Below the pieces are notes generated by a model. That model worked only from the letters and a program-made list of their open reading frames with translations, was not told the DNA's origin and did no database searches. Positions 18,477-40,652 of a DNA stretch of 54,044 bases are shown piece after piece. Origin of the DNA: an uncultured bacterium. GTDB taxonomy: Bacteria > Patescibacteriota > Minisyncoccia > Phycocordibacterales > UBA9973. The first letter of the stretch is position 1; each line of letters begins with the position of its first letter. The translations under genes and the position numbers were made by a program. The stretch lies in assembly GCA_903894955.1 (NCBI GenBank), contig CAITSA010000027.1:1-54044 (forward strand). Reading direction: 5' to 3'.

Positions 18477-18833
18477 TCAAATTTTCAAAGAAATTTCACC
18501 AATAACTAAACCTTTAATACTCTTATCGCATTCTTGATTTTGACACCCTTTAAATTGATTTTTCCCCTTTTTTTCGTTCTCCTCAAGGGTGTTTGTAGTG
18601 AGTTCTAAAAAATCAATAAGCCCTTTTTTATCAGCTTTATCATATTCCTCTTCAGGCATTAATTCCTTAAATGCCTTCAGTAAATTTTGACGTGAAAATC
18701 CTTGACCTCGAACCGCCCTAACGAGATTAATAGAGGCTCCATGAAATGGATTTTTATGTTCTTGTTCTTCAAACCTTGCTTTTATACTTCTCATACAGAC
18801 TATTATATGTGAATACGGACATCCCATGAACAA
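18477..18833 (-). CDS. Hypothetical protein
   Basis: 118-aa ORF (alternative start MRSIKARF at 18794) on the same strand as the recombinase. No family recognised. Confidence 0.4.
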   Translation of the reverse strand: MFMGCPYSHIIVCMRSIKARFEEQEHKNPFHGASINLVRAVRGQGFSRQNLLKAFKELMPEEEYDKADKKGLIDFLELTTNTLEENEKKGKNQFKGCQNQECDKSIKGLVIGEISLKI

Positions 18834-18885
18834 AAAGTGGATAACTTTTTGCTTTAAATTATGTTAGTATGTGCTTACAACTAAA

Positions 18886-19042
18886 TATGTATCAAGAGTG
18901 GCGGTAGAGAATTGGCTCGATAACCCCACAGCAACCTGCAAATGTAAGGTGCTAAATCCAACCAGACACGAAAGTGTCAGGAAAGATAAGTTTGCGTCTA
19001 GTCCACGTAAAAAATCTTTCCTCTTTATTAGAGGAATTTTTT
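18886..19042 (+). promoter_or_regulatory. SAM-I (S-box) riboswitch with terminator expression platform
   Basis: TATCAAGAG-TGGCGG-TAGAGA-ATTGGCTCGATAA-CCCCAC-AGCAACC...AAGGTGCTAAATCC...AAAGATAAG follows the SAM-I consensus blocks. Hairpin TTCCTCT-TTATT-AGAGGAA (19018-19036) plus TTTTTT precedes the ATG at 19053. Confidence 0.8.
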
Positions 19043-19530: not shown

Positions 19531-19694
19531 TAGCCTAAACCTTAAGTTTTCTTAGGGCATGGTGAGAATCCCGTGAAGCATAAAGAACTCTTAGTCAGAG
19601 TTCGCCTTCACGGGTCATACTTGGAAACGAGTATGGGTGGTCTAAAAAACCATCAATCTGGCTAAGAGCTTTTTGCGTTTTAGCCTATAAAATC
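19531..19694 (+). promoter_or_regulatory. Candidate structured 5' leader (unclassified)
   Basis: 9-bp helix CCCGTGAAG/CTTCACGGG enclosing AACTCT-TAGTC-AGAGTT. 8-bp helix CATACTTG-GAAA-CGAGTATG with a GNRA tetraloop. Further helices GGTGGT/ACCATC and GGCTAA/TTAGCC. It ends 10 nt before the ATG at 19695. Confidence 0.4.
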
Positions 19695-28915: not shown

Positions 28916-29605
28916 TTATTCTTCAATTTTTATCCAATCAAAAATTTCTTTTTGAAAATCATGTTTAGTTTTAAAATAATCTAAAAAATTAATTCTATTT
29001 ATAATTTTATTTTCTGGTCTAATAATTTCTAAATAATCAGTGTAACTACTCCATTTATATGAATTCAAGAAAAATATAGCTTTCTTTTTATTTTTTATGC
29101 CCTTTTCTTTCCACTTAGAATCGATAAGCTTTAATGGATTAAGATGCATATATGAAAAAAGATATTTAGCTTGATTATCTTTGTTTATATGCACAGATTT
29201 AAATTTTCCTTCAAACAAAGATCCAGTTCTCTGGTATTTAGCATTAAAATATTTTGAATAAGCAGTTAAAACTTTATGCATAAAAATACTGATAGCATCA
29301 TCCTGCCAAAGCCTTGCTTTGGCAACTTCAACATTTGTTGTTAAATATAAATGAAAATGATTAGGCATAAGAACCCACGCACCGATAGAAACTATAGGTA
29401 TTCCCTTTTCAAAATCCCAAACATTAATCTTGGCTCTTATAATTTGTTCTCTAAAATTAACACTGCGTTCAGAATTACAAAGATATAAAAGTTGTAAAAA
29501 TCTTTCTCGGTCTTTATTATCTAAGAAAATTTTTTGCTTACTATTGCCTCTACTAAAGATATGATAGTATTCACCACCAACTAATGGTATTTTACGTATT
29601 GACAT
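28916..29605 (-). CDS. IS200/RAYT-like Y1 (HUH) transposase
   Basis: GEYYHIFSRGN..., the HUH motif in LMPNHFHLYL, and YSKYFN...GSLFEGKFKS...YMHLNP. The track start (29635, TTG) lies inside hairpin copy 3, so MSIRKIP at 29605 is the more likely start. Confidence 0.75.
   Translation of the reverse strand: MSIRKIPLVGGEYYHIFSRGNSKQKIFLDNKDRERFLQLLYLCNSERSVNFREQIIRAKINVWDFEKGIPIVSIGAWVLMPNHFHLYLTTNVEVAKARLWQDDAISIFMHKVLTAYSKYFNAKYQRTGSLFEGKFKSVHINKDNQAKYLFSYMHLNPLKLIDSKWKEKGIKNKKKAIFFLNSYKWSSYTDYLEIIRPENKIINRINFLDYFKTKHDFQKEIFDWIKIEE
29305..29323. repeat. REP-like hairpin copy 2, inside the transposase coding sequence
   Basis: Identical GCCAAAGCCTTGCTTTGGC followed by AACTT. It encodes AKARLWQ in frame. 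Confidence 0.8.
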
Positions 29606-29630
29606 AAAAGTATTGTAAACTATTCCATCT

Positions 29631-29649
29631 GCCAAAGCAAGGCTTTGGC
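29631..29649. repeat. REP-like hairpin copy 3 (loop inverted: GCCAAAGC-AAG-GCTTTGGC)
   Basis: Same stem with the loop complemented, followed by AACTTTTTT. It lies between the transposase start and the giant-gene stop. Confidence 0.8.
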
Positions 29650-29656
29650 AACTTTT

Positions 29657-32600
29657 TTAAGGTGTCAAAGTTGTTGAATCAGTGGAAGGAATTACTGCAG
29701 ATGTTGCTGGTAGTGAGCTTGTTTGCCCTGAGTCTGTCGAAGGCGTTGTCACTTCTGGCGTTGGAGTCTCCACTACTGGCTCGACCGCCGAAGCTGAAGT
29801 GGAGGGGGGAGTTGCTGGTTCTGTTGGTGCTGGAGTTTCAGCTGAAGGCTGGTCAGTCACTGGCTCTGACGTTGTACTTGGAGGATGTGCAAGCAAAAGC
29901 AGAGCGTGAACATCGTCTTTGGTTAAACACTCCCCATCCACACAAATTTTTTCTTTAGCATTAAATACATTTGCAAACACATTTCCGATACCATTCCCCG
30001 CATCCGCCAACCAAGTACCAATTTTAATTTTAATATTTGTAAAGAAAGCAGTCACAAAAGATTCCGAAGATGAACCAGGGATTGGGGTGACAGTGCCAGC
30101 CACTCCTTCTAAATTCAAATTCAATTCTTGAATAGCTTTAATAGCAATAGGAACCATTCCTATAGAATTTAAAGATTTCATTCCTTCTTCGTCAGTAGAA
30201 ACTAATTTAGGAACCAAGGCTTCAACTTCTTGAGCAATGAAACCGAGATTTTTAACTGAACCATCTGTTTCATAATTCCAGTTATACAACACAGGCCTTA
30301 AGGACATAACCGTACTTAATCCATAATTCATATCTTCAACATTTTTCTTTAATCGAGCATCGGAACTGCAAGCAATTAAACCTCCAGAAGAGAAAGTACA
30401 GCTAGTGGTATCACTAGCATCCGTAAATTTAGCAATAGTGGCATGAGTAACACTGCCTTTAACTTCTAAAGGAGCTCCGGGAGAGGTCGTCCCAATTCCG
30501 ACGTTGCCAGCAAAATAGTTTTTATCTGACGCACCGGCTTGATATAAACCAAATGGAGAATTTGTCTGTATGCCAGCTGTCTGCGACTCAATATAAACGC
30601 CATAGGTATTTGTCACTGTTCCTCCCGACCCATTATTTAAACCACCGGCATATAATGAATATGCGTTAGAAATTACAGCGCCAGCTACCGTCCCTTGATT
30701 CATCACAAAAGAATAAACTCCGTATGCATTTGTTAATACATTCGTATTTCCCGCACCTGGTGCATTGTATACAGCAAAATTGAGACCGTAAGCATTCGCC
30801 AAAGTGCCAGTTCCTTGGTGTTGGGCTTGCCCATTAATACCCATGATGTTTCCCGTATTATTATATGAACCCTGTTGCACTGCCTGAAAAACTCCAGCTC
30901 GATAGCTACCTGAGGTGCCTGCTGTCGGATTAGAATAGATTATAGGATTATCGGTCATGCTTGTCCCTGATGTAGTGGTATACGTTAGACTCGAAGTTAT
31001 CTTAGTAGCAGTGATTGCCCCAGCCGAAGTTACGTTAAATTGAGAAGATGAACCAACAGATAGCATTTGGGTTGGGCTTGTCGTCCCCACCCCCAATCTA
31101 TTATTTGTATTATCCCAGAAAAAATTAGCATTGTTCTGGGTCAGATATCCACTAGTTGTAGAAATAAAAGGTATTGAGCCAGCAGTTAAAGCAGTAGAAC
31201 CTGAAACTTGGGCTAAGATATTTCTAGTGGTCGAAGGGCTGAAATACAATTGTGTTCCATCATACTCCATTGCTCCAGCTTCGGCTGTTGTAAGATTTGT
31301 GCCGGATGTGAATTTGAGTGGAGCAGTAGAAGCAGTGGCTGTTCCAGCATTTAAATGAAGATAAGCAGTTGGAGAAGAGACTCCCACACCAACGGAACCT
31401 GTATTTGTTATTCTTAAACCATAATTACCCCAAGGTCCAATGACTAAATTACCAGTATTGACAGAGCCATTTGTAAAAATAAGTGCTGAATCGCCTGCTT
31501 GTGTAAGTCCGTTAAAAGAACCCACCGCAAGACTAGGATAAAGACGAATGGCATGACTATCAGAACCCGTAACTGAGAAAATACCTACAAATGATTGGCT
31601 TGCACCAGTGTCCAACGTCAAATTTCCCGAAAAATGACCAGCGCCAGCAACATCCAATTTATACCCTGGCGTCGCCGTCCCAATTCCGACGTTACCTCCA
31701 CTAAATGTAGCTGCATAATTAGTCGTACCTCCGGTTGCATTAACTACTAAACCAGTATTGACTGCAGAAGTCCCATTCCAAGTTCCAGTGCTTTCAATGT
31801 CCATTCCTATTTTGTTAATTGAAGCAGTACTTGAAGTATCGGTGACATTATGAAGGATACCAGTGTAGGCTGTGGTTTTTGCTGCTGAAGATACTGTGTG
31901 AAGTAGAGAGGTTGGAGAAGTGGTGCCGATACCGACGGAGCCGTTATTATTTATCGTCATTGCTAGTGTTGCACTACCAGCATTGTAAGGGTAGAAAACT
32001 AAATTTCCTGTATTGTCTGCCCCGTTTCTTACGGCTCCAATAGAACCAATTGGATTAATAACTCCTGCATCATCTTGAATATTAAAAGCTAATGCTGTCC
32101 CAAACCCATCTCCCATGTCAGAAGTTTTGGTTGTTAATACCCGAACACCCGCAAAAATAGAGTTCGATGTCTGACCACTTCTCTCAAATATTGCGGTGGA
32201 AGTAAGCGCTGAATTGACAGCGTGCAAAATTCCACTTGGCGTCGTCGTCCCAATCCCCACATTCCCACCACTAAAGGTTGCTGCATAATTGGTCGTACCT
32301 CCAGTGGCATTAACTACTAAACCAGTATTGACTGCAGAAGTTCCATTCCATGTACCAGTGCTTTCAATATCCATTCCTATTTTGTTAATTGAAGCAGTAC
32401 TTGAAGTGTCTGTGACACTGTGAAGGATGCCAGTGTAGGCTGTGGTTTTTGCTGCCGAGGAAACTGTGTGGAGCAGAGAGGTTGGAGCGGTTATGCCGAT
32501 GCCAACGTTGCCACCAAAATAATTAGTTCCACTAGATGAATAAAGTGCATAGTTAGCTGTAGCAGCTCCCGAGATATCCCCTATATACAATCCATATTTA

Positions 32601-35600
32601 TTCGTTCCGCTTGAAGCTGTATTAGAAGTTACATAAATTGCATAACTGTTCACTGGAGTACCACTGTCTGACATAGATGAGATGTCTAATCCTTTTATGG
32701 TATTTATTACTCCGGTTCCGGTTCCATAGGCTCCCAATTTCGCCAAACTTAAATTAGTAATATTCCCCGTACTCATAACTCCTCCGTAAAATAACATACC
32801 ATACCCATTTGTAATTGTGCCTGTCCCATAGTGATAAAGTGATCCGGCTATTCCTCTCACGCTCCCAGTATAATTTTGCGAACCATATGGGTTTATACCA
32901 AAATTTCCGGCAAAATGATCATACGTATCTGTGCTTAAATTATTGGTTATCTTAACATAGCTTCCGATACCTAGCACCGCGGATGTAGGATTTGTGACAT
33001 CATTATTAACATATAATTTATAAGTCGGCGTCACCGTTCCAATGCCGACGTTGCCTGAACTTAAAATTCTCATTCTCTCTGTCAGCGCCGTATCACCAGT
33101 AGCATTTCTGGTTGAAAATGCTAGATCTCCAATTGTATTTCCAGTTCCATTGGTAAGTAGCCCCTTTATAGCAGCATAACCGATGGAACTTACAGTTTCT
33201 GATTGAGAATTTCCAAAAACTATCGCACCACCCGCACCAGCAGAACCAGAATTTGAATTTATGGCGAGAGTTCCTGTTTTTACTCCCGCATCAGTTAGTG
33301 CAGCAGTTAATTGACCAGCTCCATATATTTCTGTTTGTGCCATAGGCGTCGCCGTCCCAATCCCCACATTCCCACCACTAAAGGTAGCCGCATAATTAGT
33401 CGTACCTCCGGTTGCATTAACTACTAAACCAGTATTGATTGCGGAAGTTCCATTCCAAGTTCCAGTGCTTTCAATATCCATGCCAATTTTGTTAATTGAA
33501 GCAGTACTTGAAGTGTCTGTGACACTGTGAAGGACGCCGGTGTAGGAAGTTGTCTTTGCTGCTGAAGATACTGTGTGAAGTAGAGAGGTTGGAGCGGTTA
33601 TGCCGATGCCAACAGAGCCGGCAGGTGTAAATGTTGCAATATCTATTTGACCTGTATTTTGTCCCTGTGAGGCATCTCCTGTGTATGTTCCTCCACGAAT
33701 TTTAAATCCACTTGAAACTGACGTGCCTGCTATAACACTATCAACATATGAGACAATGTTTGCTCCTTGTCTCCAAGTTGTCCCATCATAATAGAACGAG
33801 GACATTCCTTGACCGACATCATTTGCAACAACAGTAGTTGGCGATGCTTTTGTTCCTCCTGCAACCATAACATTAATCCCTTTTCCGCCATATGCTCCTG
33901 AACCGTAACTTTCAAATAATATTCCTCTATTGTAGCTTGCTGTAGCTTGCGATTGTGAAGCTAAAATATTCAAATTAGCCCCCGGACTCGTCGTTCCGAT
34001 CCCCACATTCCCACCACTAAAGGTAGCCGCATAATTAGTTGTACCTCCGGTAGCATTAACTACTAAACCAGTATTGACTGCAGAAGTTCCATTCCATGTA
34101 CCAGTGCTTTCAATATCCATTCCGATTTTGTTAATTGAAGCAGTGCTTGAAGTATCGGTGACACTGTGAAGGACGCCGGTGTAGGAAGTTGTCTTTGCAG
34201 CTGAAGATACTGTATGGAGTAAAGAGGTTGGAGAGGTTATACCGATGCCGACGGAGCCAGCATTATCAATACGCATTCGTTCAGTTAAGCTTGTCGCACC
34301 ATTAGTATTTGTAAAAAATGTTATGCGACTACCTTGTGCAGTATCAGTCCATGCTTCATCTGTCATAAAGTTAATCTGCGCTCGTGAACCCGAAGAATAA
34401 CCTGTTGTGCCGTATCCAAACATCCCGATAGAGCCAACTTGTGCTCCCGAAGCCAAAGCACTTGGACTTGCTGCCGTGCCAGCCGCTCGTCGAAAATCTA
34501 ATATTCCGATGCCAGAGTAGGTATCTATAACAGCACGGGTTGTTGCCGAGTCAGCTCCAACAAGGTGGAGATAAGTAGTTGCGGGTGGAGCAACGGGTGC
34601 GACCGTATTCGCATTTATTGTCATCAGAGAGTCCGGACTTGTCGTCCCCACCCCCACATTCCCACCTTTGAAATAGACACCCGTCGTGGATGAAGGTCCA
34701 ATCCAAGATTCAGCTAGAGTGGTTAAAGGATTGAGAGAAGTAGAGTTGGTAATACCTCCAGTCATCGTACCTCCAGCGAGCGGTAGGTCTAAAGAAGAAT
34801 GTCCGGTGAGAGAACCAGTAATCGTTCCAGCAGAGAAATTACCAGAAGCGTCACGAGCGACAATGGTGGAAGCAGTGTTAGCATCAGTGGCATCAGTTCC
34901 AAGAGTGACTCCAGTAGAACCGTTGTAAGAAGTTCCAGTCAGATGTGTGCCAAAAGTTAAGGTACTCAAGTTAGAACCGAGAGCGATGCCACTGATGGTG
35001 GAGTTGGCAAGCATTGCATTGGTGATGGAACTATTGGGTAAAGAAACTGTTCCAATAATGGTTAAGCCACCTGTCCCTTGAATAAGTCCGGATCCAGAAT
35101 TAACTCCGACTGCCGTGACCGCTCCTGCCGAAGAAACTTGAAACTGAGAAGTAGCACCGACAGAGAGAGGAGCAGAAGGCGTCGTCGTCCCAACCCCCAC
35201 ATTCCCATCTTTGAAATAGACACCCGTCGTGGATGAAGGTCCAATCCAAGATTCAGCTAGAGTGGTTAAAGGATTGAGAGAAGTAGAGTTGGTAATTCCT
35301 CCGGTCATGGTGCCTCCAGCGAGGGGTAGGTCTAAAGAAGAATGTCCGGTGAGAGAACCAGTAATCGTTCCAGCAGAGAAATTACCAGAAGCATCTCGAG
35401 CGACAATAGTGGAGGCAGTGTTGGCGTCAGTAGCATCAGTTCCAAGAGTGACTCCAGTGGAACCGTTGTAAGAAGTTCCAGTCAGATGTGTGCCAAAAGT
35501 TAAGGTACTCAAGTTAGAACCGAGAGCAATGCCACTGATGGTGGAGTTGGCAAGCATTGCATTGGTGATGGAACTATTGGGTAAAGAAACTGTTCCAGTA

Positions 35601-38446
35601 ATGGTTAAGCCACCAGTGCCTTGGATAAGTCCGGATTCAGAATTTAAACCAACAGCCGTGACTGCTCCAGTAGAAGAAACTTGAAATTGAGAAGTAGCAC
35701 CAACCGAGAGTGGAGCGGAAGGTGAAGTTGTCCCGAAGCCGACGTTGCCATCTTTAAAATAAATTCCAGTAGTGGAAGAAGGTCCAATCCAAGATTCAGC
35801 TAGAGTGGTTAAAGGATTGAGAGAAGTAGAGTTGGTAATTCCTCCGGTCATGGTGCCTCCAGCGAGGGGTAGATCTAAAGAAGCATTTCCGGTTAAAGAA
35901 CCGCTGAAAGTAGCCGCAGTAACAGTACCGCTCCCAGCATTAATAGAATTATTATTTGTTAAAAGTCCCGTCGTCCAAGTACCAGCTATTTCTATACCAG
36001 TTGTTCCAGTACCAGTGTTGTTTAAATAAATACCGTTTTCAGTTACGCCGGTACCAGTATTGGAAAGTGAAAGAAGTTTTTGGGTACCACTTGTAGTGTT
36101 GTTAGTTAAATTACCAGAAAGCAAATTAACATCTGCGCCTATGGAAGTATCGTCAACTGTGTAGCTAGCGTTAAAAGGATAATTAGTATTGAAATAACGC
36201 AAGTCAGAAAGACCAGAATTCCATTGAAGGGTCGCATTACCAGCTCCAAGATTATTTCTATAAAAAATTAAACTTTCTTTCACGTCAGAAGTTTGAGTAG
36301 AACCAATAGTCCAAGAAGTGGAAGAAGTAGCTCCACTGGCCACCACTCCTGCGATATTATTTGCAGTGATTTGGTCAAAGTATCCATTTTTCCAATAATA
36401 AGTTGGTGAACCAATCGTATTGGTATTTGATGTTGCTGAAGTAGTTGGTCGTAATGCTCCTGTGGAGTCAAAAACGATTCGTTGATTAACTCCTGGGTTA
36501 AGATCTAAAACATTTTTTTCTCCGCTTCCTGTTCCTGCTCCACTGACTGCTATTTTTAAACCGGTATAACCACCTCCGGCAGTCGTGGCATCAGTAACGG
36601 TGATGATTTGACCATTACTCATCTCTCCATTCCCTGCATTCGCCGTCAAAGTATTGCCAATCAGAGTTCCATTAGTGATAGCATTATCAGTCACTGAAAA
36701 AATAGTGCCAGTAGGAACAGATGAAGTGATGGATGATGTTCCACTATTTTGTTCGTAATTGGTAACATAGAGATTCGGAATAGTAATGTTGCCAGTACCA
36801 AATGTTACGGGTCTATTGTTCACTGTGTTAATGGAAAGAGTGGAAGCAGAATTTAAATCAATGATTGGATTAAAAGCGGAAATATTCGTACTAACGTTTT
36901 TTAATTCCACCGCTCCAGTGCCAGTACTGAAAGTATTACTACCAGTCACCGTCGTTGCTCCGTTTAAAGAAACTGCTCCGGTACCAGTACTGAAAGTTCC
37001 AATCCCTGTTTGAGAAAAATTAGAATCGTTTTGGATGGTAATTGCTCCGTTAGAAGTCAAACCAGAAGTAGCAGTGACCAATCCAGAAATAATCGGAGTG
37101 GCTGTCCAAGCGGTAGGATTAATTGTCAAAGTGGTAGCTACTTTACCCAAATTGGTAGCAGTGGAATTAACAGTACCAAGATTAAAAATTCCCGCTGAAT
37201 CAATTGCCATAGTTCCAGAGGTATTTGTCTGAATAGTTAAGTCACCTGCTGTATTCGTCCAACCTGACGCTCCGCCAGAAGCAAGATTTAAAATTCCCGT
37301 AGAGTTTCCAATATTGGTGGCTGCAGTTCCGGTAGCATTGATATTAGTTATTCCCGTTTGAGTAAAAGTATTATCAAGAGTGGTCGCTCCGTGAATCGTT
37401 ACCGTATCAGTTCCAGTATCTCCTAAAGTAGTATTACCAATGACAGTTAAAAGTTTTGTGCTGACTGCTTCGTGCAATGCGTCAGAAAGACTTTCGAGAT
37501 TGTTGCTTATAGAATCAAATATTCTGTTAACTTGCTTATTTAAAAAACTATTAGAAATAAAAGAAGATGTGTCAATGTTATTACTGCTACCAGCTGGACC
37601 CATAGGTCCTTGGGAACCTGTAGCTCCTTTAGGACCAGCAGGACCACGCAAGGTAATAATCTTCGCTGGAAGAGAGGAGGAAATCCCCGCCGTATTTTTA
37701 ATTCCAGGTTTAGAGATATAATTTTTAAAAAATGAATTTAGATCAGAGAGGGAGAGAGTGGCTTTGGGTGAAAGATAGTTTTTAAAAGCATTTGCCAAAG
37801 TATCGTAATTGAGGGGAGGATTAACTTCTGATTTAACTAAAATAGCAGACAATAAATTCCCTGGGAAGGAAGCAATTTTTTTAGAAAGAGCAGATAAATT
37901 AAAATTGCTTAAATATGAGATTCCAAGAATGAGAAGAAAAGTGAGAACGAGTTGCGCTCCTTTTCTTCTAATGAAAGAGATTTTTTTACTAGGAATTTTT
38001 GCAATCTCTGGTAGTTGAATTTTATCCGCTAAAACAGGTTCCGGCTCTGGGATTTTTTTATTTATACTATCTGAATCAGACTTAAACTCTAAAAGTGGTT
38101 CTAATTTAAGTGATGAACTATTATATTTAAGAATTGATTCTTCCCCGACGTACCAAACACGACCAACTCTTTTAGAGTCAACTTTATGATCTCTGGCTAG
38201 TTGGCCAATATAGTCTCTGGAGTAGCCCGTCAAGGCGCTAGCTTCCTTGGCAGAAATGTACTTCTTAAAATTATTATATTTAAGAATTGATTCTTCCCCG
38301 ACGTACCAAACACGACCAACTCTTTTAGAGTCAACTTTATTACCCCTTACCAATTGACCAATATAGTCTCTGGAGTAGCCTGTAAGAGCACTGGCCTCCT
38401 TGGCAGAAATATACTTCTTGTTATCAAAAAATAGACTAGGGCTCAT
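29657..38446 (-). CDS. Giant (2,929 aa) membrane-anchored tail-fibre-like surface protein
   Basis: Uninterrupted ORF. In order: two tandem 51-aa excisionase/MerR-like HTH copies, one TM helix (LVLTFLLILGISYL) and 7 collagen-like G-X-Y triplets (GPAGPKGATGSQGPMGPAGSS). Then more than 2,300 aa of G/T/S/N-rich repeats. An S74-like intramolecular chaperone segment follows (SDARLKKNVEDMNYGLSTVMSLRPVLYNWNYE...GFIAQEVEALVPKLV), and the protein ends in a Pro/Thr/Ser tail. Confidence 0.9.
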   Translation of the reverse strand: MSPSLFFDNKKYISAKEASALTGYSRDYIGQLVRGNKVDSKRVGRVWYVGEESILKYNNFKKYISAKEASALTGYSRDYIGQLARDHKVDSKRVGRVWYVGEESILKYNSSSLKLEPLLEFKSDSDSINKKIPEPEPVLADKIQLPEIAKIPSKKISFIRRKGAQLVLTFLLILGISYLSNFNLSALSKKIASFPGNLLSAILVKSEVNPPLNYDTLANAFKNYLSPKATLSLSDLNSFFKNYISKPGIKNTAGISSSLPAKIITLRGPAGPKGATGSQGPMGPAGSSNNIDTSSFISNSFLNKQVNRIFDSISNNLESLSDALHEAVSTKLLTVIGNTTLGDTGTDTVTIHGATTLDNTFTQTGITNINATGTAATNIGNSTGILNLASGGASGWTNTAGDLTIQTNTSGTMAIDSAGIFNLGTVNSTATNLGKVATTLTINPTAWTATPIISGLVTATSGLTSNGAITIQNDSNFSQTGIGTFSTGTGAVSLNGATTVTGSNTFSTGTGAVELKNVSTNISAFNPIIDLNSASTLSINTVNNRPVTFGTGNITIPNLYVTNYEQNSGTSSITSSVPTGTIFSVTDNAITNGTLIGNTLTANAGNGEMSNGQIITVTDATTAGGGYTGLKIAVSGAGTGSGEKNVLDLNPGVNQRIVFDSTGALRPTTSATSNTNTIGSPTYYWKNGYFDQITANNIAGVVASGATSSTSWTIGSTQTSDVKESLIFYRNNLGAGNATLQWNSGLSDLRYFNTNYPFNASYTVDDTSIGADVNLLSGNLTNNTTSGTQKLLSLSNTGTGVTENGIYLNNTGTGTTGIEIAGTWTTGLLTNNNSINAGSGTVTAATFSGSLTGNASLDLPLAGGTMTGGITNSTSLNPLTTLAESWIGPSSTTGIYFKDGNVGFGTTSPSAPLSVGATSQFQVSSTGAVTAVGLNSESGLIQGTGGLTITGTVSLPNSSITNAMLANSTISGIALGSNLSTLTFGTHLTGTSYNGSTGVTLGTDATDANTASTIVARDASGNFSAGTITGSLTGHSSLDLPLAGGTMTGGITNSTSLNPLTTLAESWIGPSSTTGVYFKDGNVGVGTTTPSAPLSVGATSQFQVSSAGAVTAVGVNSGSGLIQGTGGLTIIGTVSLPNSSITNAMLANSTISGIALGSNLSTLTFGTHLTGTSYNGSTGVTLGTDATDANTASTIVARDASGNFSAGTITGSLTGHSSLDLPLAGGTMTGGITNSTSLNPLTTLAESWIGPSSTTGVYFKGGNVGVGTTSPDSLMTINANTVAPVAPPATTYLHLVGADSATTRAVIDTYSGIGILDFRRAAGTAASPSALASGAQVGSIGMFGYGTTGYSSGSRAQINFMTDEAWTDTAQGSRITFFTNTNGATSLTERMRIDNAGSVGIGITSPTSLLHTVSSAAKTTSYTGVLHSVTDTSSTASINKIGMDIESTGTWNGTSAVNTGLVVNATGGTTNYAATFSGGNVGIGTTSPGANLNILASQSQATASYNRGILFESYGSGAYGGKGINVMVAGGTKASPTTVVANDVGQGMSSFYYDGTTWRQGANIVSYVDSVIAGTSVSSGFKIRGGTYTGDASQGQNTGQIDIATFTPAGSVGIGITAPTSLLHTVSSAAKTTSYTGVLHSVTDTSSTASINKIGMDIESTGTWNGTSAINTGLVVNATGGTTNYAATFSGGNVGIGTATPMAQTEIYGAGQLTAALTDAGVKTGTLAINSNSGSAGAGGAIVFGNSQSETVSSIGYAAIKGLLTNGTGNTIGDLAFSTRNATGDTALTERMRILSSGNVGIGTVTPTYKLYVNNDVTNPTSAVLGIGSYVKITNNLSTDTYDHFAGNFGINPYGSQNYTGSVRGIAGSLYHYGTGTITNGYGMLFYGGVMSTGNITNLSLAKLGAYGTGTGVINTIKGLDISSMSDSGTPVNSYAIYVTSNTASSGTNKYGLYIGDISGAATANYALYSSSGTNYFGGNVGIGITAPTSLLHTVSSAAKTTAYTGILHSVTDTSSTASINKIGMDIESTGTWNGTSAVNTGLVVNATGGTTNYAATFSGGNVGIGTTTPSGILHAVNSALTSTAIFERSGQTSNSIFAGVRVLTTKTSDMGDGFGTALAFNIQDDAGVINPIGSIGAVRNGADNTGNLVFYPYNAGSATLAMTINNNGSVGIGTTSPTSLLHTVSSAAKTTAYTGILHNVTDTSSTASINKIGMDIESTGTWNGTSAVNTGLVVNATGGTTNYAATFSGGNVGIGTATPGYKLDVAGAGHFSGNLTLDTGASQSFVGIFSVTGSDSHAIRLYPSLAVGSFNGLTQAGDSALIFTNGSVNTGNLVIGPWGNYGLRITNTGSVGVGVSSPTAYLHLNAGTATASTAPLKFTSGTNLTTAEAGAMEYDGTQLYFSPSTTRNILAQVSGSTALTAGSIPFISTTSGYLTQNNANFFWDNTNNRLGVGTTSPTQMLSVGSSSQFNVTSAGAITATKITSSLTYTTTSGTSMTDNPIIYSNPTAGTSGSYRAGVFQAVQQGSYNNTGNIMGINGQAQHQGTGTLANAYGLNFAVYNAPGAGNTNVLTNAYGVYSFVMNQGTVAGAVISNAYSLYAGGLNNGSGGTVTNTYGVYIESQTAGIQTNSPFGLYQAGASDKNYFAGNVGIGTTSPGAPLEVKGSVTHATIAKFTDASDTTSCTFSSGGLIACSSDARLKKNVEDMNYGLSTVMSLRPVLYNWNYETDGSVKNLGFIAQEVEALVPKLVSTDEEGMKSLNSIGMVPIAIKAIQELNLNLEGVAGTVTPIPGSSSESFVTAFFTNIKIKIGTWLADAGNGIGNVFANVFNAKEKICVDGECLTKDDVHALLLLAHPPSTTSEPVTDQPSAETPAPTEPATPPSTSASAVEPVVETPTPEVTTPSTDSGQTSSLPATSAVIPSTDSTTLTP
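31676..34260. repeat. Four dispersed ~270-nt near-identical coding repeats within the giant gene
   Basis: Protein module (G/S)VGIG(I/T)T(S/A)PTSLLHTVSSAAKTT.YTG(V/I)LH.VTDTSSTASINKIGMDIESTGTWNGTSA(V/I)NTGLVVNATGGTTNYAATFSGGNVGIGT occurs four times. The DNA copies start near 31676, 32247, 33352 and 33985. Confidence 0.8.
34625..35890. repeat. Tandem 543-nt (181-aa) coding repeat, about 2.3 units
   Basis: Shadow ORFs at 34686, 35229 and 35772 are spaced exactly 543 nt apart with near-identical translations. The protein unit is SLDLPLAGGTMTGGITNSTSLNPLTTLAESWIGPSSTTG...GSLTGHS. Confidence 0.85.
38120..38425. repeat. Tandem 153-nt duplication encoding the two N-terminal HTH copies
   Basis: ttaagaattgattcttccccgacgtaccaaacacgaccaactcttttagagtcaacttta occurs twice about 153 nt apart. 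Confidence 0.8.
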
Positions 38447-38508
38447 TAGTATTATTATACCTTTGGCAATTTTCTAAAAACATCAAAATAGGTGGAAAAC
38501 AAAAAACA

Positions 38509-38540
38509 TCTCGGCTAAATCTCGGGTAATCTCGGGTAAC
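38509..38540. promoter_or_regulatory. Triple direct repeat TCTCGG(C/G)TAA in the divergent intergenic region
   Basis: tctcggctaaa tctcgggtaa tctcgggtaac, three copies at 10-11-nt spacing between the giant gene and the MerR-like gene. Confidence 0.35.
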
Positions 38541-38820
38541 TTTTAATAGATAAAATTTATCTAAAAATAACATCGAGGCAACCTCTAAAAAATCTTCACT
38601 TTGGCAAAAAGAATATAATCTAAGTTATTAAATTATATTTAATGTTAAACCATAATTTATTGACCTAAAAATAGATAAAAATTAAGCTGAAATTTAAAAA
38701 TGTTCAGAATATAGACTGATCTGAAAGATATCTTTGTTATACACATCAAAGATTGCAAAACTTTACAAAAGTTTATATGATTAGGATGTACCTTTAGTAA
38801 GGTTTATAAAAGTAAAAATT

Positions 38821-39063
38821 ATGTCTGATCAATTTATTACAATAAAACAAGCCGCTAGTATTCTAGGAGTTTCTCCCCTGACCCTCCGTAATTGGGACAA
38901 GAATGGAAAGTTAAAAGCTTATAGACACCCTATGAATAATTATAGAGTTTACAAAATTGAAGACTTAGAAGCTGTTATCGGAGAGATAAAAAGTGGCACA
39001 GGATACAGAAAAAACGCAAAAAGAGAGTTCAGAAAAATCATTGTAAGGCATCTATCGGATTAA
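38821..39063 (+). CDS. Small MerR/excisionase-type HTH protein
   Basis: 80-aa ORF. ITIKQAASILGVSPLTLRNWDKNGKLKAYRHPMNNYRVYKIEDLEAVI matches the HTH found at the HsdM N-terminus. Confidence 0.7.
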   Translation: MSDQFITIKQAASILGVSPLTLRNWDKNGKLKAYRHPMNNYRVYKIEDLEAVIGEIKSGTGYRKNAKREFRKIIVRHLSD

Positions 39064-39110: not shown

Positions 39111-40487
39111 TTAGCCTAAATATTCTCTTAGGAATTTTTCTTTAAATTCAAAAAAGTTTTCTTCTAAAATTGATTGTCGAATTTTTTTTACTAAGTTAAC
39201 AATAAAATATAAATTGTGAATAGAGGCGAGTGTCCCCGCTAGCATTTCTTTCCCATGAAAAAGATGCGCGATGTATGCCCGAGAATACCCCGAACGAGAG
39301 CCTTCAGCTCCGTACGAGGCAAAATTCTTACAAGTAAAACAACCACACCCTTCATCTAGTGGACCGAAGTCATTTCTGAATTTTGTATTCATGATAATTA
39401 TTTTCCCATTTTTAGTATAAATAGTTCCATTCCTCCCCAACCGCGTCGGAGCCACACAATCAAAAAGATCCACTCCATTTTCAATCCCCATAAATAAATC
39501 TTCCGGTTCTCCAATGCCAAGCAAGTGACGAGGTTTTTCTTCCGGCAAAATTTCATTGACCCATTTTACAGCCGTAGACATATCCTCTTTCGCGAAACTC
39601 CCACCAATACCAAAACCATCAAAATATGTTCCATCTACATTTATTTCTGAAATAATTTTTGCAGATTTTTTCCTCAAACTCTCTTCCCTTCCCCCTTGCA
39701 CGATACCAAATAGCGCGGGAGAAAATTCTCTTTTTTGGGGTGTCTCGCAGGCTGACGAGCCGAGAGGCAGTGCTGGGACAGCAGTCCCAGACAGCGACCC
39801 CAAAGAAGAACCTTTTTCCTCTTCGCCTAATAATTTCTGATGCTCCATCAAACTCCTCTCTGCCCATCTGTGCGTCCTCTCTAATGCTTCTTCTTGATAT
39901 TTTAAATCTTCACTCGGAGAAGTACATTCATCAAAAGCAAAAATTATATCTGCTCCAAGGTTGTGCTGAATTTGAATTGATTTTTCGGGAGTGATGTAAT
40001 GAATAGAACCATCTAAATGTGACTTAAAAGAAACACCGTCTTGTCCAATCTTTGCTAAACGAGGAGCATCACTATCATCAAAACGTTCCGGAATTAACAA
40101 TGATGGATCGGTAATTTTGGAAAGATGAATCAATTTAGAAATATCTTTTCCGAAAGCAGCCCCCAAAGAAAATACTTGGAAACCCCCAGAATCAGTCATG
40201 GTGGGACCTTTCCAGTTCATAAATTTACCAATCCCACCTGCATCACGCACAATTTCATCTCCAGGCTGTAAATACAAATGATAAGTATTGCCAAGCACTA
40301 CTTGGGTACCAGCATCTTTCACCTGTTCAGGATTTAAAGATTTTACCGTAGCCTTGGTTCCGACTGCCACAAAAGCTGGAGTCAAAATATCTCCATGCGG
40401 AGTCTCTAAAACCCCTACCCTGCCCAGATATGTTTTACCGGCTTCGCCTTTGCTATTTGTTAACTTTTTTTGTATTTTAAATTTCAT
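39111..40487 (-). CDS. tgt: tRNA-guanine transglycosylase (queuine tRNA-ribosyltransferase) with two GC-rich in-frame insertions
   Basis: 458-aa ORF with GVLETPHG, TDSGGFQVFSL, GIVQGG and the zinc site CGCFTC...H. It carries the extra segments GSSLGSLSGTAVPALPLGSSACETPQ and ASYGAEGSRSG. Confidence 0.9.
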   Translation of the reverse strand: MKFKIQKKLTNSKGEAGKTYLGRVGVLETPHGDILTPAFVAVGTKATVKSLNPEQVKDAGTQVVLGNTYHLYLQPGDEIVRDAGGIGKFMNWKGPTMTDSGGFQVFSLGAAFGKDISKLIHLSKITDPSLLIPERFDDSDAPRLAKIGQDGVSFKSHLDGSIHYITPEKSIQIQHNLGADIIFAFDECTSPSEDLKYQEEALERTHRWAERSLMEHQKLLGEEEKGSSLGSLSGTAVPALPLGSSACETPQKREFSPALFGIVQGGREESLRKKSAKIISEINVDGTYFDGFGIGGSFAKEDMSTAVKWVNEILPEEKPRHLLGIGEPEDLFMGIENGVDLFDCVAPTRLGRNGTIYTKNGKIIIMNTKFRNDFGPLDEGCGCFTCKNFASYGAEGSRSGYSRAYIAHLFHGKEMLAGTLASIHNLYFIVNLVKKIRQSILEENFFEFKEKFLREYLG

Positions 40488-40518
40488 TTGATGTATATTT
40501 TTATACCTGTGGATAACT

Positions 40519-40554: not shown

Positions 40555-40652
40555 ACAAAGAATTGTTGACCGAACTGTTACCGGACGGTGGCGTGGCTGG
40601 GACAACCAGCATAGGAAACAATCCGAGAAAAAACCCTTCGGGGTTTTTTCTT
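40555..40652 (+). ncRNA. Candidate ~100-nt small RNA (promoter-to-terminator unit without an ORF)
   Basis: Bounded by the promoter above and the terminator below. It has a GC-rich core with hairpin GCTGG-GACAA-CCAGC and is antisense to the tgt upstream region. Confidence 0.3.

Follow-up and report, generated by a model that had tools for sequence, protein, structure and literature searches.

A giant putative surface fibre of a Patescibacteria bacterium with a membrane-tethered, probably DNA-binding head

Why would a protein that ends like a phage tail fibre begin like a transcription factor? The question is raised by one gene of an uncultured Patescibacteria bacterium (assembly GCA_903894955.1, contig CAITSA010000027.1), of which we analysed, by computation throughout, positions 1 to 54,044 (hereafter the window, 54,044 nucleotides). 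The open reading frame (ORF) at 29657..38446 on the reverse strand is uninterrupted and runs from an ATG start through 2,929 residues to a stop. From the N- to the C-terminus, its product consists of two tandem winged helix-turn-helix (HTH) domains, a disordered linker, an N-in transmembrane (TM) helix, a short collagen-like segment, a fibre of ~2,400 residues, a Peptidase_S74 domain, and an extra tail of ~140 residues. A preliminary description, made from the letters of the sequence, had proposed this order of domains within a single ORF, and our ORF call, profile searches, and hydropathy scan confirmed it. We consider it fairly probable that the protein is a type-II anchored giant surface fibre whose tethered head probably binds DNA. 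The N-terminal part of the gene, with its promoter element, is laid out as follows.

29657..38446, reverse strand: whole gene, from the ORF call (2,929 residues)
38454..38459, reverse strand: TATAAT -10 box, 7 nucleotides (nt) ahead of the ATG, which predicts a leaderless mRNA
38273..38434, reverse strand: winged HTH 1, excisionase/MerR type (HTH_17), residues 5-58, from profiles, AlphaFold2, and Foldseek
38105..38266, reverse strand: winged HTH 2, tandem duplicate of HTH 1, residues 61-114, from the ratio of non-synonymous to synonymous change (dN/dS), a hidden Markov model (HMM), and AlphaFold2
37973..38104, reverse strand: disordered cytoplasmic linker, residues 115-158, with a predicted local distance difference test score (pLDDT) below 55
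37883..37972, reverse strand: single TM helix or signal anchor, N-in, residues 159-188, hydrophobic core at ~162-185
37646..37882, reverse strand: juxtamembrane extracellular segment, residues 189-267, with two [AF]FKNY[LI]S motifs

Is the HTH region translated at all? The two HTH copies arose by tandem duplication of 153 nt and differ at 20 nt, 12 of them in third codon positions; 13 of the differences are synonymous and 7 non-synonymous. Comparison of copy 1 with copy 2 gave a dS of 0.56 and a dN of 0.06, with dN/dS at 0.108. There is no in-frame ATG, GTG, or TTG between residues 100 and 171, so that no product can begin just ahead of the TM helix. The N-terminus, MSxxLFFDNKKYIS, is kept at the same position in homologues, and most of the 96 family members retrieved have their HTH from residue ~10 on. 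Upstream, 16 related promoters (that of the window and those of 15 genes of other Patescibacteria) have TATAAT at a distance of 6-9 nt from the ATG, which is exactly 7 nt in 13 of the 16. At a distance of 7 nt, the mRNA would start at or next to the AUG, and thus the transcript of the giant gene is predicted to be leaderless. Taking together the low dN/dS, the lack of an internal start, the conserved spacing of TATAAT, and the conserved N-terminus, we regard it as secure, as far as sequence can tell, that the HTH region is translated and that the ATG at 38446 is the true start. An alternative start codon or an N-terminal signal peptide was rejected on the dN/dS, the conserved -10 spacing, and the lack of internal starts. 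The preliminary description had allowed that the true start might lie after the HTH region, or that the TM segment might be a cleaved signal peptide behind untranslated HTHs. What we found is two translated HTH domains ahead of an N-in helix, as the start codons, the dN/dS, and the charges that flank the helix indicate.

By the family HMM, the HTH copies lie at residues 10-55 and 61-106. An AlphaFold2 model of residues 1-191, a monomer built on a shallow alignment of 16 double-HTH homologues, places winged-helix domains at residues 5-58 and 63-114, both with pLDDT above 90, and a helix at residues 159-188; in both copies the fold is a helix-turn-helix followed by a beta-hairpin wing. When the head was compared with the PDB by Foldseek, TraN of plasmid pIP501 came first (E 2.6e-4, prob 1.0), and the later matches included the MerR-family DNA complexes MtaN, BmrR, GlnR, RacA, and SoxR. 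A single HTH domain superposes on Xis of mycobacteriophage Pukovnik with a root-mean-square deviation (rmsd) of 1.2 Å over 46 columns. AM32/TraN is also the best solved relative of the head by sequence (E 5.6e-4, 24% identity), in an alignment that spans both repeats. The net charge over residues 1-115 is +9. Since the head is basic and its structural neighbours are all DNA binders, its activity is most probably DNA binding.

The linker between head and membrane is 50-200 residues long in homologues. Beyond it, a hydropathy scan found one hydrophobic segment only, at about residues 162-185, whose N- and C-terminal flanks have net charges of +5 and +2, respectively. The protein is accordingly predicted to be a type-II (N-in, C-out) membrane protein. 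The region reads KKISFIRRKG-AQLVLTFLLILGISYL-SNFNLSALS and has the character of n-, h-, and c-regions, with a small-x-small motif behind; cleavage by signal peptidase at this point, with separation of head and fibre as the outcome, is possible. A Pfam scan of the protein detected no LPXTG motif, no cell-wall binding domain, and no beta-barrel anchor. In the juxtamembrane segment, the pair of [A/F]FKNY[L/I]S motifs (window 37709-37786, reverse strand; residues 221-246) is kept in the relatives P0001-P0003 and may relate to the cell wall.

The extracellular part can be compared with the MATs, trimeric adhesive fibres of predatory Bdellovibrio, of which 13 of 21 end in S74 with an SDxxxK motif (PMC10769870). 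Its features are given below.

37583..37645, reverse strand: short collagen-like run, residues 268-288, 7 G-X-Y triplets
30365..37582, reverse strand: fibre shaft, residues 289-2694, rich in Thr, Gly, Ser, and Ala
34607..35932, reverse strand: 181-residue tandem repeats, residues 839-1280, ~2.4 copies, up to 96% identical
34148..34501, reverse strand: module homologous to the beta-helix domain of a Bdellovibrio MAT fibre, residues 1316-1433, matching 8oml and 8on4
30200..30364, reverse strand: Peptidase_S74 intramolecular chaperone core, residues 2695-2749, catalytic S2695 and K2700
29888..30067, reverse strand: conserved post-S74 module (...WLADAGNGIGNVFAN...C..C...), residues 2794-2853
29660..29887, reverse strand: Pro/Thr/Ser-rich tail, residues 2854-2929, where most relatives have a PF16403 Ig-like domain instead

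The collagen-like stalk of the preliminary description was overstated: the 7 triplets at residues 268-288 score 13.6 bits against Pfam Collagen, below the cut-off of 27.2, and form a short collagen-like segment only. Homologues have 5-13 G-X-Y triplets at the same position. Internal repeats in the shaft were located by self-BLAST of 150-residue chunks; besides the 181-residue repeats, a module of ~90 residues is present in four copies. The motif GNVGIGTTSP occurs 14 times. Among solved structures, the sole significant relatives of the shaft are Bdellovibrio MAT fibres: 8oml (E 3.6e-18, ~45% identity over ~110 residues), 8on4 (E 9.7e-17), 8ond (Bd2133; E 2.5e-10), and 8ojn (E 1e-4). The best PHROG match is to a tail fibre family (2e-26). 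By these alignments, the shaft modules are homologous to the trimeric beta-helix modules of the MATs, and here too a trimeric state is predicted. Scaled from the tip of Bd2133 (370 residues, ~142-150 Å), the shaft would roughly reach a length of the order of 100 nm.

At the C-terminal end, PF13884 matched residues 2695-2749 with 52.6 bits against a cut-off of 22, over profile positions 1-57 of 58, so the S74 homology on which the preliminary description depended was found. The SDxxxK motif is intact as S2695-DARL-K2700, and all of 17 aligned relatives keep S2695, D2696, R2698, and K2700 unchanged. In an AlphaFold2 model of the domain, again a monomer from a shallow alignment, the core reached a pLDDT of 81-92 and its best Foldseek match was the ICA domain of MyRF (7dc3; E 7e-4, prob 1.0, template-modelling score 0.55-0.62), with a weak match to endoNF (3gw6). 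The trimeric surface fibre proposed at the outset thus gains from both the S74 domain and the MAT-homologous shaft, with trimerisation itself still a prediction. S74 had also been placed at the C-terminus; it lies near the end of the giant protein but is not its extreme C-terminus, since a module and tail of ~140 residues follow. The post-S74 module, with WLADAGNGI...C..C, is common to 7 relatives (P0074, P0076, P0086, P0092, P0093, P0097, and P0098). Autocleavage at S2695 would release ~235 C-terminal residues; in phage S74 chaperones, roughly 150 residues are released. Two relatives, P0079 and P0093, have two tandem SDxRxK motifs ~190 residues apart near the C-terminus, which suggests two successive chaperone domains.

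How far does this architecture recur? We surveyed 44 giant homologues of 1,665-4,737 residues and found an HTH head followed by a hydrophobic segment in 23; some of the remaining homologues have an ordinary N-terminal signal or TM segment. In at least 11 of these 23 (1,700-4,500 residues), HTH and TM helix are combined with an SDxRxK motif close to the C-terminus. In two others, P0103 and P0115, one or two Phage_int_SAM_1 domains (tyrosine-recombinase core-binding type; 38.8 and 59.1 bits) stand ahead of the TM helix, with no HTH_17. The presence of a non-homologous head of DNA-binding type at the same cytoplasmic position argues that nucleic-acid binding is the selected property. Among 1.84 billion representatives, the head profile matched 9,034 clusters at E<=1e-3 and 4,883 at E<=1e-10; the top 150 matches are almost all double-HTH proteins of ~300-400 residues, with the best-scoring at ~320. 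Of 118 proteins examined, 96 have the head, nearly always with one TM helix 50-200 residues on. Judged by this distribution, the HTH-linker-TM head is a generic module of Patescibacteria and not specific to fibres. A head that belongs to fibres in particular is not supported, given that the same head sits on thousands of proteins, mostly of ~320 residues, with other ectodomains. Full-text literature searches found no description of the HTH-TM-fibre-S74 combination in Patescibacteria.

For the anchored fibre with a DNA-binding head, we infer the following course of export, trimerisation, autocleavage, DNA binding, and adhesion. The single signal-anchor helix would direct export of the chain. 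Once outside, S74 would trimerise, template the folding of the MAT-type beta-helix modules, and then cut itself off at S2695, and the remaining trimeric fibre (~100 nm by the rough scaling above) would expose its distal modules, by which the bacterium could adhere to host or partner cells. The first 115 residues would remain cytoplasmic on a flexible linker of ~45 residues, where the head could keep the base of the fibre bound to DNA or to the promoter region of its own gene. In a trimeric fibre, six HTH domains would be gathered in one place, and cleavage by S74 could not free them, because the membrane lies between. The preliminary description had suggested that the HTH part may report fibre engagement or cleavage; as to cleavage, this fails on the position of the TM helix between HTH and S74, by which only the extracellular C-terminal piece would be freed. 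A MYRF-like release of the HTH domains was rejected likewise, as the TM helix (residues 159-188) separates them (residues 5-114) from S74 (residue 2695 on).

If the head does bind DNA, where might it bind? Upstream of the giant gene lie the following elements.

38491..38499, reverse strand: TTTTCCACC, a variant of the DnaA-box-like element TTATCCACA, 31 nt upstream of the -10 box
38508..38539, reverse strand: three direct repeats of (T)TAsCCGAGAT, a candidate operator, with a period of 10-11 nt and the proximal copy at -68 from the ATG
38821..39063, forward strand: divergent gene for an 80-residue MerR-like protein (MerR 43.9 bits, HTH_17 34.3 bits)

In 16 of 18 related loci, the ~1.5 kb upstream of the HTH-TM gene include a gene for a homologue of the MerR-like protein (46-78% identity), which diverges from the HTH-TM gene wherever orientation was checked. 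The pairing is seen with giant as well as short HTH-TM genes; the other neighbours vary. The preliminary description had called the two proteins the same HTH type. They do belong to the same superfamily, and the MerR-like gene is a conserved partner, but its recognition helix is the canonical one of MerR (VSPLTLRNWDKNGK) and differs from GYSRDYIGQLxR of the giant. The intergenic regions of the window and of its orthologous locus, L001, have two conserved blocks in common. A conserved block of ~120 nt 5' of the MerR-like gene (window 38700-38820) is common to L001 and includes a perfect palindrome, ACCTTACTAAAGGT, which lies between a predicted -10 element and the start codon of the MerR-like gene and may be the operator of that protein itself. 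At the loci L012-L014 and P0076, gatB adjoins the MerR-like/HTH-TM pair, and gatA/gatC are also present at P0076; giant and short HTH-TM genes could thus, as a first hint, occupy equivalent positions.

The 16 HTH-TM promoters are built of a box, [T/C/G]T[A/T]TCC[A/C]C[A/C/T], followed by 30-32 nt, TATAAT, ~7 nt, and the ATG. The spacing from box to -10 is 30-32 nt in 15 of the 16, and nine boxes match the DnaA-box consensus, TTATCCACA, exactly. When metagenomes were scanned for exact matches to the box-plus-leaderless layout, only 4 of 120 matches were found to precede HTH-TM genes; many genes behind the others are unrelated and often secreted, and about half of the real ORFs behind this layout start with a signal peptide or TM segment. 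Within the window, the same layout is seen at 18802-18850, before an unrelated 105-residue ORF (18794..18477, reverse strand). An exact TTATCCACA is present at 40508-40516 (reverse strand), just upstream of a -10-like TATAAA before tgt (39111..40487), with a spacing unlike that of the promoter class. A canonical MerR-type promoter, with the operator in a spacer of 19-20 bp, was not seen at the giant gene: a -35-like TTGnTn stands 21 nt from the -10 box and the spacer is unconserved.

The CCGAGA repeats, a short way 5' of the box, are of narrower distribution and specific to HTH-TM genes of the giant type. The proximal copy of CCGAGA[A/T] is at -68/-69 in 9 of 12 giant-type loci, across other genera, and CCGAGA elements are present in 10 giant-type loci versus 0 of 116 non-HTH-TM promoters of the same class. 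Three direct copies are found at the double-HTH loci (the window and L001, which as orthologues count as one independent observation), whereas single-HTH loci have one copy, two copies, or a palindrome. The palindromic form sometimes reads TCTCGGATAACCGAGA. These data are suggestive of an operator, either for the head or for the MerR-like protein.

Several observations weigh against a membrane-anchored fibre with a DNA-binding head. The HTH copies of the giant itself fall just below the profile cut-offs (HTH_17, 25.5 versus 27 bits; TIGR01764, 28.3 versus 28.8), whereas homologous heads pass that of HTH_17 with 34-41 bits. As a unit, the two-domain model fails to superpose on TraN (rmsd ~11 Å; predicted template-modelling score 0.40), so that a TraN-like internal dimer is not supported by the model. 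Across the HTH-TM family, the motif GYSxDYIGQLxR of the recognition helix hardly varies, which fits a conserved protein partner as well as a conserved DNA site. In isolation, the TM helix with its basic n-region and ALS motif resembles a signal peptide, and the S74 model is of moderate confidence, with a mean pLDDT of 63. Finally, the TTATCCACA-type box varies along with one residue of the recognition helix (Cys versus Ala/Val/Ile), a correlation that is confounded by phylogeny. Binding of the head to this box was dropped as an idea on that ground and because the box marks a general promoter class, in which HTH-TM genes are the small minority counted above.

The alternative that survives best, which we hold to be a serious but clearly less likely possibility, is that the protein is a membrane-tethered transcription factor of the ToxR/CadC kind. 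The tandem HTH would then bind its own CCGAGAT repeats with an occupancy that follows trimerisation of the fibre or the load on it, the gene would be autoregulated, and the MerR-like neighbour may act together with the head. A cytoplasmic DNA-binding domain, one TM helix, and an ectodomain are the parts of such a factor. The repeats are fixed at -68 and were met in the giant-type loci against none of the 116 other promoters; with their period of 10-11 nt, they would fit two winged helices in tandem, as in the self-repressing TraN; and three direct repeats go with double HTHs, while one, two, or palindromes go with single ones. In addition, MYRF shows that trimerisation driven by S74 can potentiate a DNA-binding domain. 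However, S74 here lies across the membrane, where its cleavage cannot release the HTH, and no gene for an intramembrane protease is found among the neighbouring genes. The two double-HTH loci, being orthologous, amount to a single observation, and it may just as well be the MerR-like protein that has its operator in the repeats. Thousands of short proteins whose promoters are without repeats have this head too, and a flexible fibre of ~2,400 residues on a single TM helix would make a poor transmitter of signals. DNA occupancy at the CCGAGA repeats that depends on trimerisation is possible.

A more speculative proposal, which we think unlikely, is that HTH-linker-TM heads are tethered DNA binders that physically couple envelope proteins to the chromosome. 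The nascent head, as the first part made from a leaderless mRNA, would bind the CCGAGAT repeats, 60-95 bp ahead of its own transcription start, and so draw the gene to the membrane for co-translational export (transertion in cis); later, the hexavalent cluster of heads, with the MerR-like partner, would feed the status of assembly back. If true, this would be a previously undescribed link of a surface attachment organelle to gene control in ultra-small symbionts.

Could the head instead bind a protein? The HTH of RodZ binds MreB, and by analogy the head could be an adaptor that fixes the base of the fibre to a cytoplasmic scaffold or positioning system. The nearly invariant GYSxDYIGQLxR fits one conserved partner, the commonest members of the family, HTH-TM proteins of ~320 residues, have about the size of RodZ, and mreC is ~3 kb away. 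This role nevertheless appears quite improbable: the head falls in the excisionase/MerR/TraN fold class, all of them DNA binders, while the HTH of RodZ is of the XRE type; the head is strongly basic; the alternative Phage_int_SAM_1 head of related giants is also of DNA-binding type; and the other loci have no mre synteny.

We give a similarly slight chance to a TM segment that acts as an internal cleavable signal peptide, such that an HTH-TM leader stays behind and the fibre is secreted or held in some other way. The tripartite character of the segment and its small-x-small motif would be expected of such a signal. Yet 160 residues, with two folded domains among them, separate the segment from the N-terminus, and no start codon would make it N-terminal. 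No other anchor that could hold the fibre was detected (LPXTG, Pfam cell-wall binding domain, or beta-barrel), and the arrangement of head and TM helix is kept in the great majority of the 118 proteins.

Whose gene is it? The neighbouring genes are cellular and encode saccharopine dehydrogenase, an EamA transporter, ornithine/arginine decarboxylase, Tgt, a DUF3800 protein, and MreC, the last ~3 kb from the giant gene. The G+C content at third codon positions (GC3) is 0.294, versus 0.29-0.33 in the housekeeping neighbours. Overall G+C is raised (0.42 versus ~0.34), with the excess from second codon positions (0.54), and therefore reflects amino-acid composition. A search of the head profile against the 2.9 million viral contigs of IMG/VR gave zero matches. 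Named homologues are all from Patescibacteria, as are 9 of 10 GTDB loci; the lone exception is a 2.6-kb contig binned as Nitrospira. The homologues thus support the small-genome Patescibacteria host that had been assumed. Because of the cellular neighbours, a GC3 like theirs, and the lack of the head in IMG/VR, we reject a phage origin and conclude that this is a native chromosomal gene of a Patescibacteria bacterium. That it encodes a tail fibre of a phage or prophage, or else a trimeric autotransporter adhesin, as the PHROG tail-fibre and S74 matches and the homologue names 'tail fiber domain-containing protein' and 'trimeric autotransporter adhesin' might suggest, is barely credible beside this native setting, an N-terminal membrane anchor that is incompatible with a virion fibre, a head missing from viral contigs, and the lack of a YadA-type beta-barrel (no Pfam match).

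Several further elements of the window were noted. Directly downstream of the giant gene lies an IS200/RAYT-like HUH transposase gene (window 28916-29635, reverse strand; 239 residues, motifs MPNHFHLYL and YKWSSY), whose likely true start is the ATG at 29605, with a TACAAT of its own 6 nt before that ATG. On this identity, the 239-residue ORF was rejected as a component of the system. One homologue of the giant, P0039, has the HTH head fused to a fragment of the IS200/RAYT-like transposase type. A hairpin, TTGCCAAAGC-ctt-GCTTTGGCA, is found 3' of the stop codon of the giant gene. In an Rfam scan, the 5' region of the giant gene matched no known RNA element; elsewhere in the window, matches above the gathering score were a DUF3800-IX RNA (40560-40628, forward strand, 44.2 bits) beside the DUF3800 gene, a LOOT RNA (19532-19654, forward strand, 86.3 bits), and a SAM riboswitch (18886-18992, forward strand, 61.4 bits).

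To our knowledge, host attachment in Patescibacteria (the candidate phyla radiation) is largely unknown and few of these bacteria have been cultured. The gene family described here supplies candidates for attachment fibres that are very long and homologous to the prey-recognition fibres of Bdellovibrio. Its anchor is unusual in that a DNA-binding-type head, of two non-homologous types, lies under a surface fibre. The HTH head belongs with thousands of as yet uncharacterised HTH-TM proteins, whose genes have a small MerR-like gene as their conserved partner. If the head binds DNA, envelope and chromosome would be directly wired together in very small cells, and the regulation of attachment genes would gain a handle in a defined promoter, its repeats, and a partner protein.

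How does the giant protein compare with known systems? ToxR, CadC, and RodZ likewise have a cytoplasmic HTH, one TM helix, and an extracytoplasmic domain. The HTH is an OmpR-type winged helix in ToxR and CadC and of the XRE type in RodZ, and the ectodomains are small sensor domains. In contrast, the giant has an HTH of the excisionase/MerR type, not OmpR or XRE, and its predicted ectodomain is a fibre of ~2,700 residues with a self-cleaving chaperone. The TraN/AM32 proteins of Inc18 plasmids (4p0z, 4pm3, 6g1t) share with the head two excisionase/MerR-like winged helices in tandem. TraN is a monomer whose two winged-helix domains place their recognition helices in two adjacent major grooves, and it represses Ptra as well as its own promoter (PMC6158623). 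It is, however, a small soluble cytosolic repressor, unlike the membrane-tethered giant.

As far as we know, MYRF is the known family in which a single type-II protein unites all three of these parts: a DNA-binding domain, an S74/ICA domain, and a TM helix. Its order is DNA-binding domain, ICA, and TM helix, with the ICA on the cytoplasmic side, and cleavage frees a trimeric DNA-binding domain (PMC3742443). In the giant, the order is HTH, TM helix, fibre, and S74, cleavage would be extracellular and leave the HTH tethered, and the HTH_17 domains are unrelated to the Ndt80-type DNA-binding domain of MYRF. Phage tail fibres and tailspikes (endoNF, 3gw6; the distal subunit of a long tail fibre, 6f45) are alike in a Ser-Lys S74 domain after a trimeric fibre, in short collagen-like runs, and in PHROG similarity. 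They are parts of virions, whereas the giant is encoded by a cell, predicted to be membrane-anchored, and headed by HTHs, and its S74 is not terminal.

The closest likeness is to the MAT fibres (Bd3182; Bd1334 and Bd2133 for the shaft modules), which also belong to a bacterium living on other cells and not to a phage, and have homologous modules, an S74 domain with SDxxxK, mosaic repeats, and GNVGIGTxxP motifs. Self-cleavage has been shown for Bd3182, and in all 21 MATs a signal peptide precedes a conserved beta-rich N-terminal domain of ~130 residues that is thought to bind a surface element (PMC10769870). The MATs lack a TM helix and a cytoplasmic domain; the giant has a tandem HTH, a TM helix, a short collagen-like run, and an extra post-S74 module with a tail, is two to three times as long, and belongs to a host that is presumably monoderm, whereas Bdellovibrio is diderm. 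The MAT-type N-terminus was not found in the giant, which begins with HTH-HTH-linker-TM; its residues 189-400 were not directly compared with the MAT N-domain. As the giant is without the defining N-terminus, we do not file it as a strict member of the MAT family, and from its sequence it is best described as a MAT/tail-fibre-type S74 fibre with an HTH-TM anchor.

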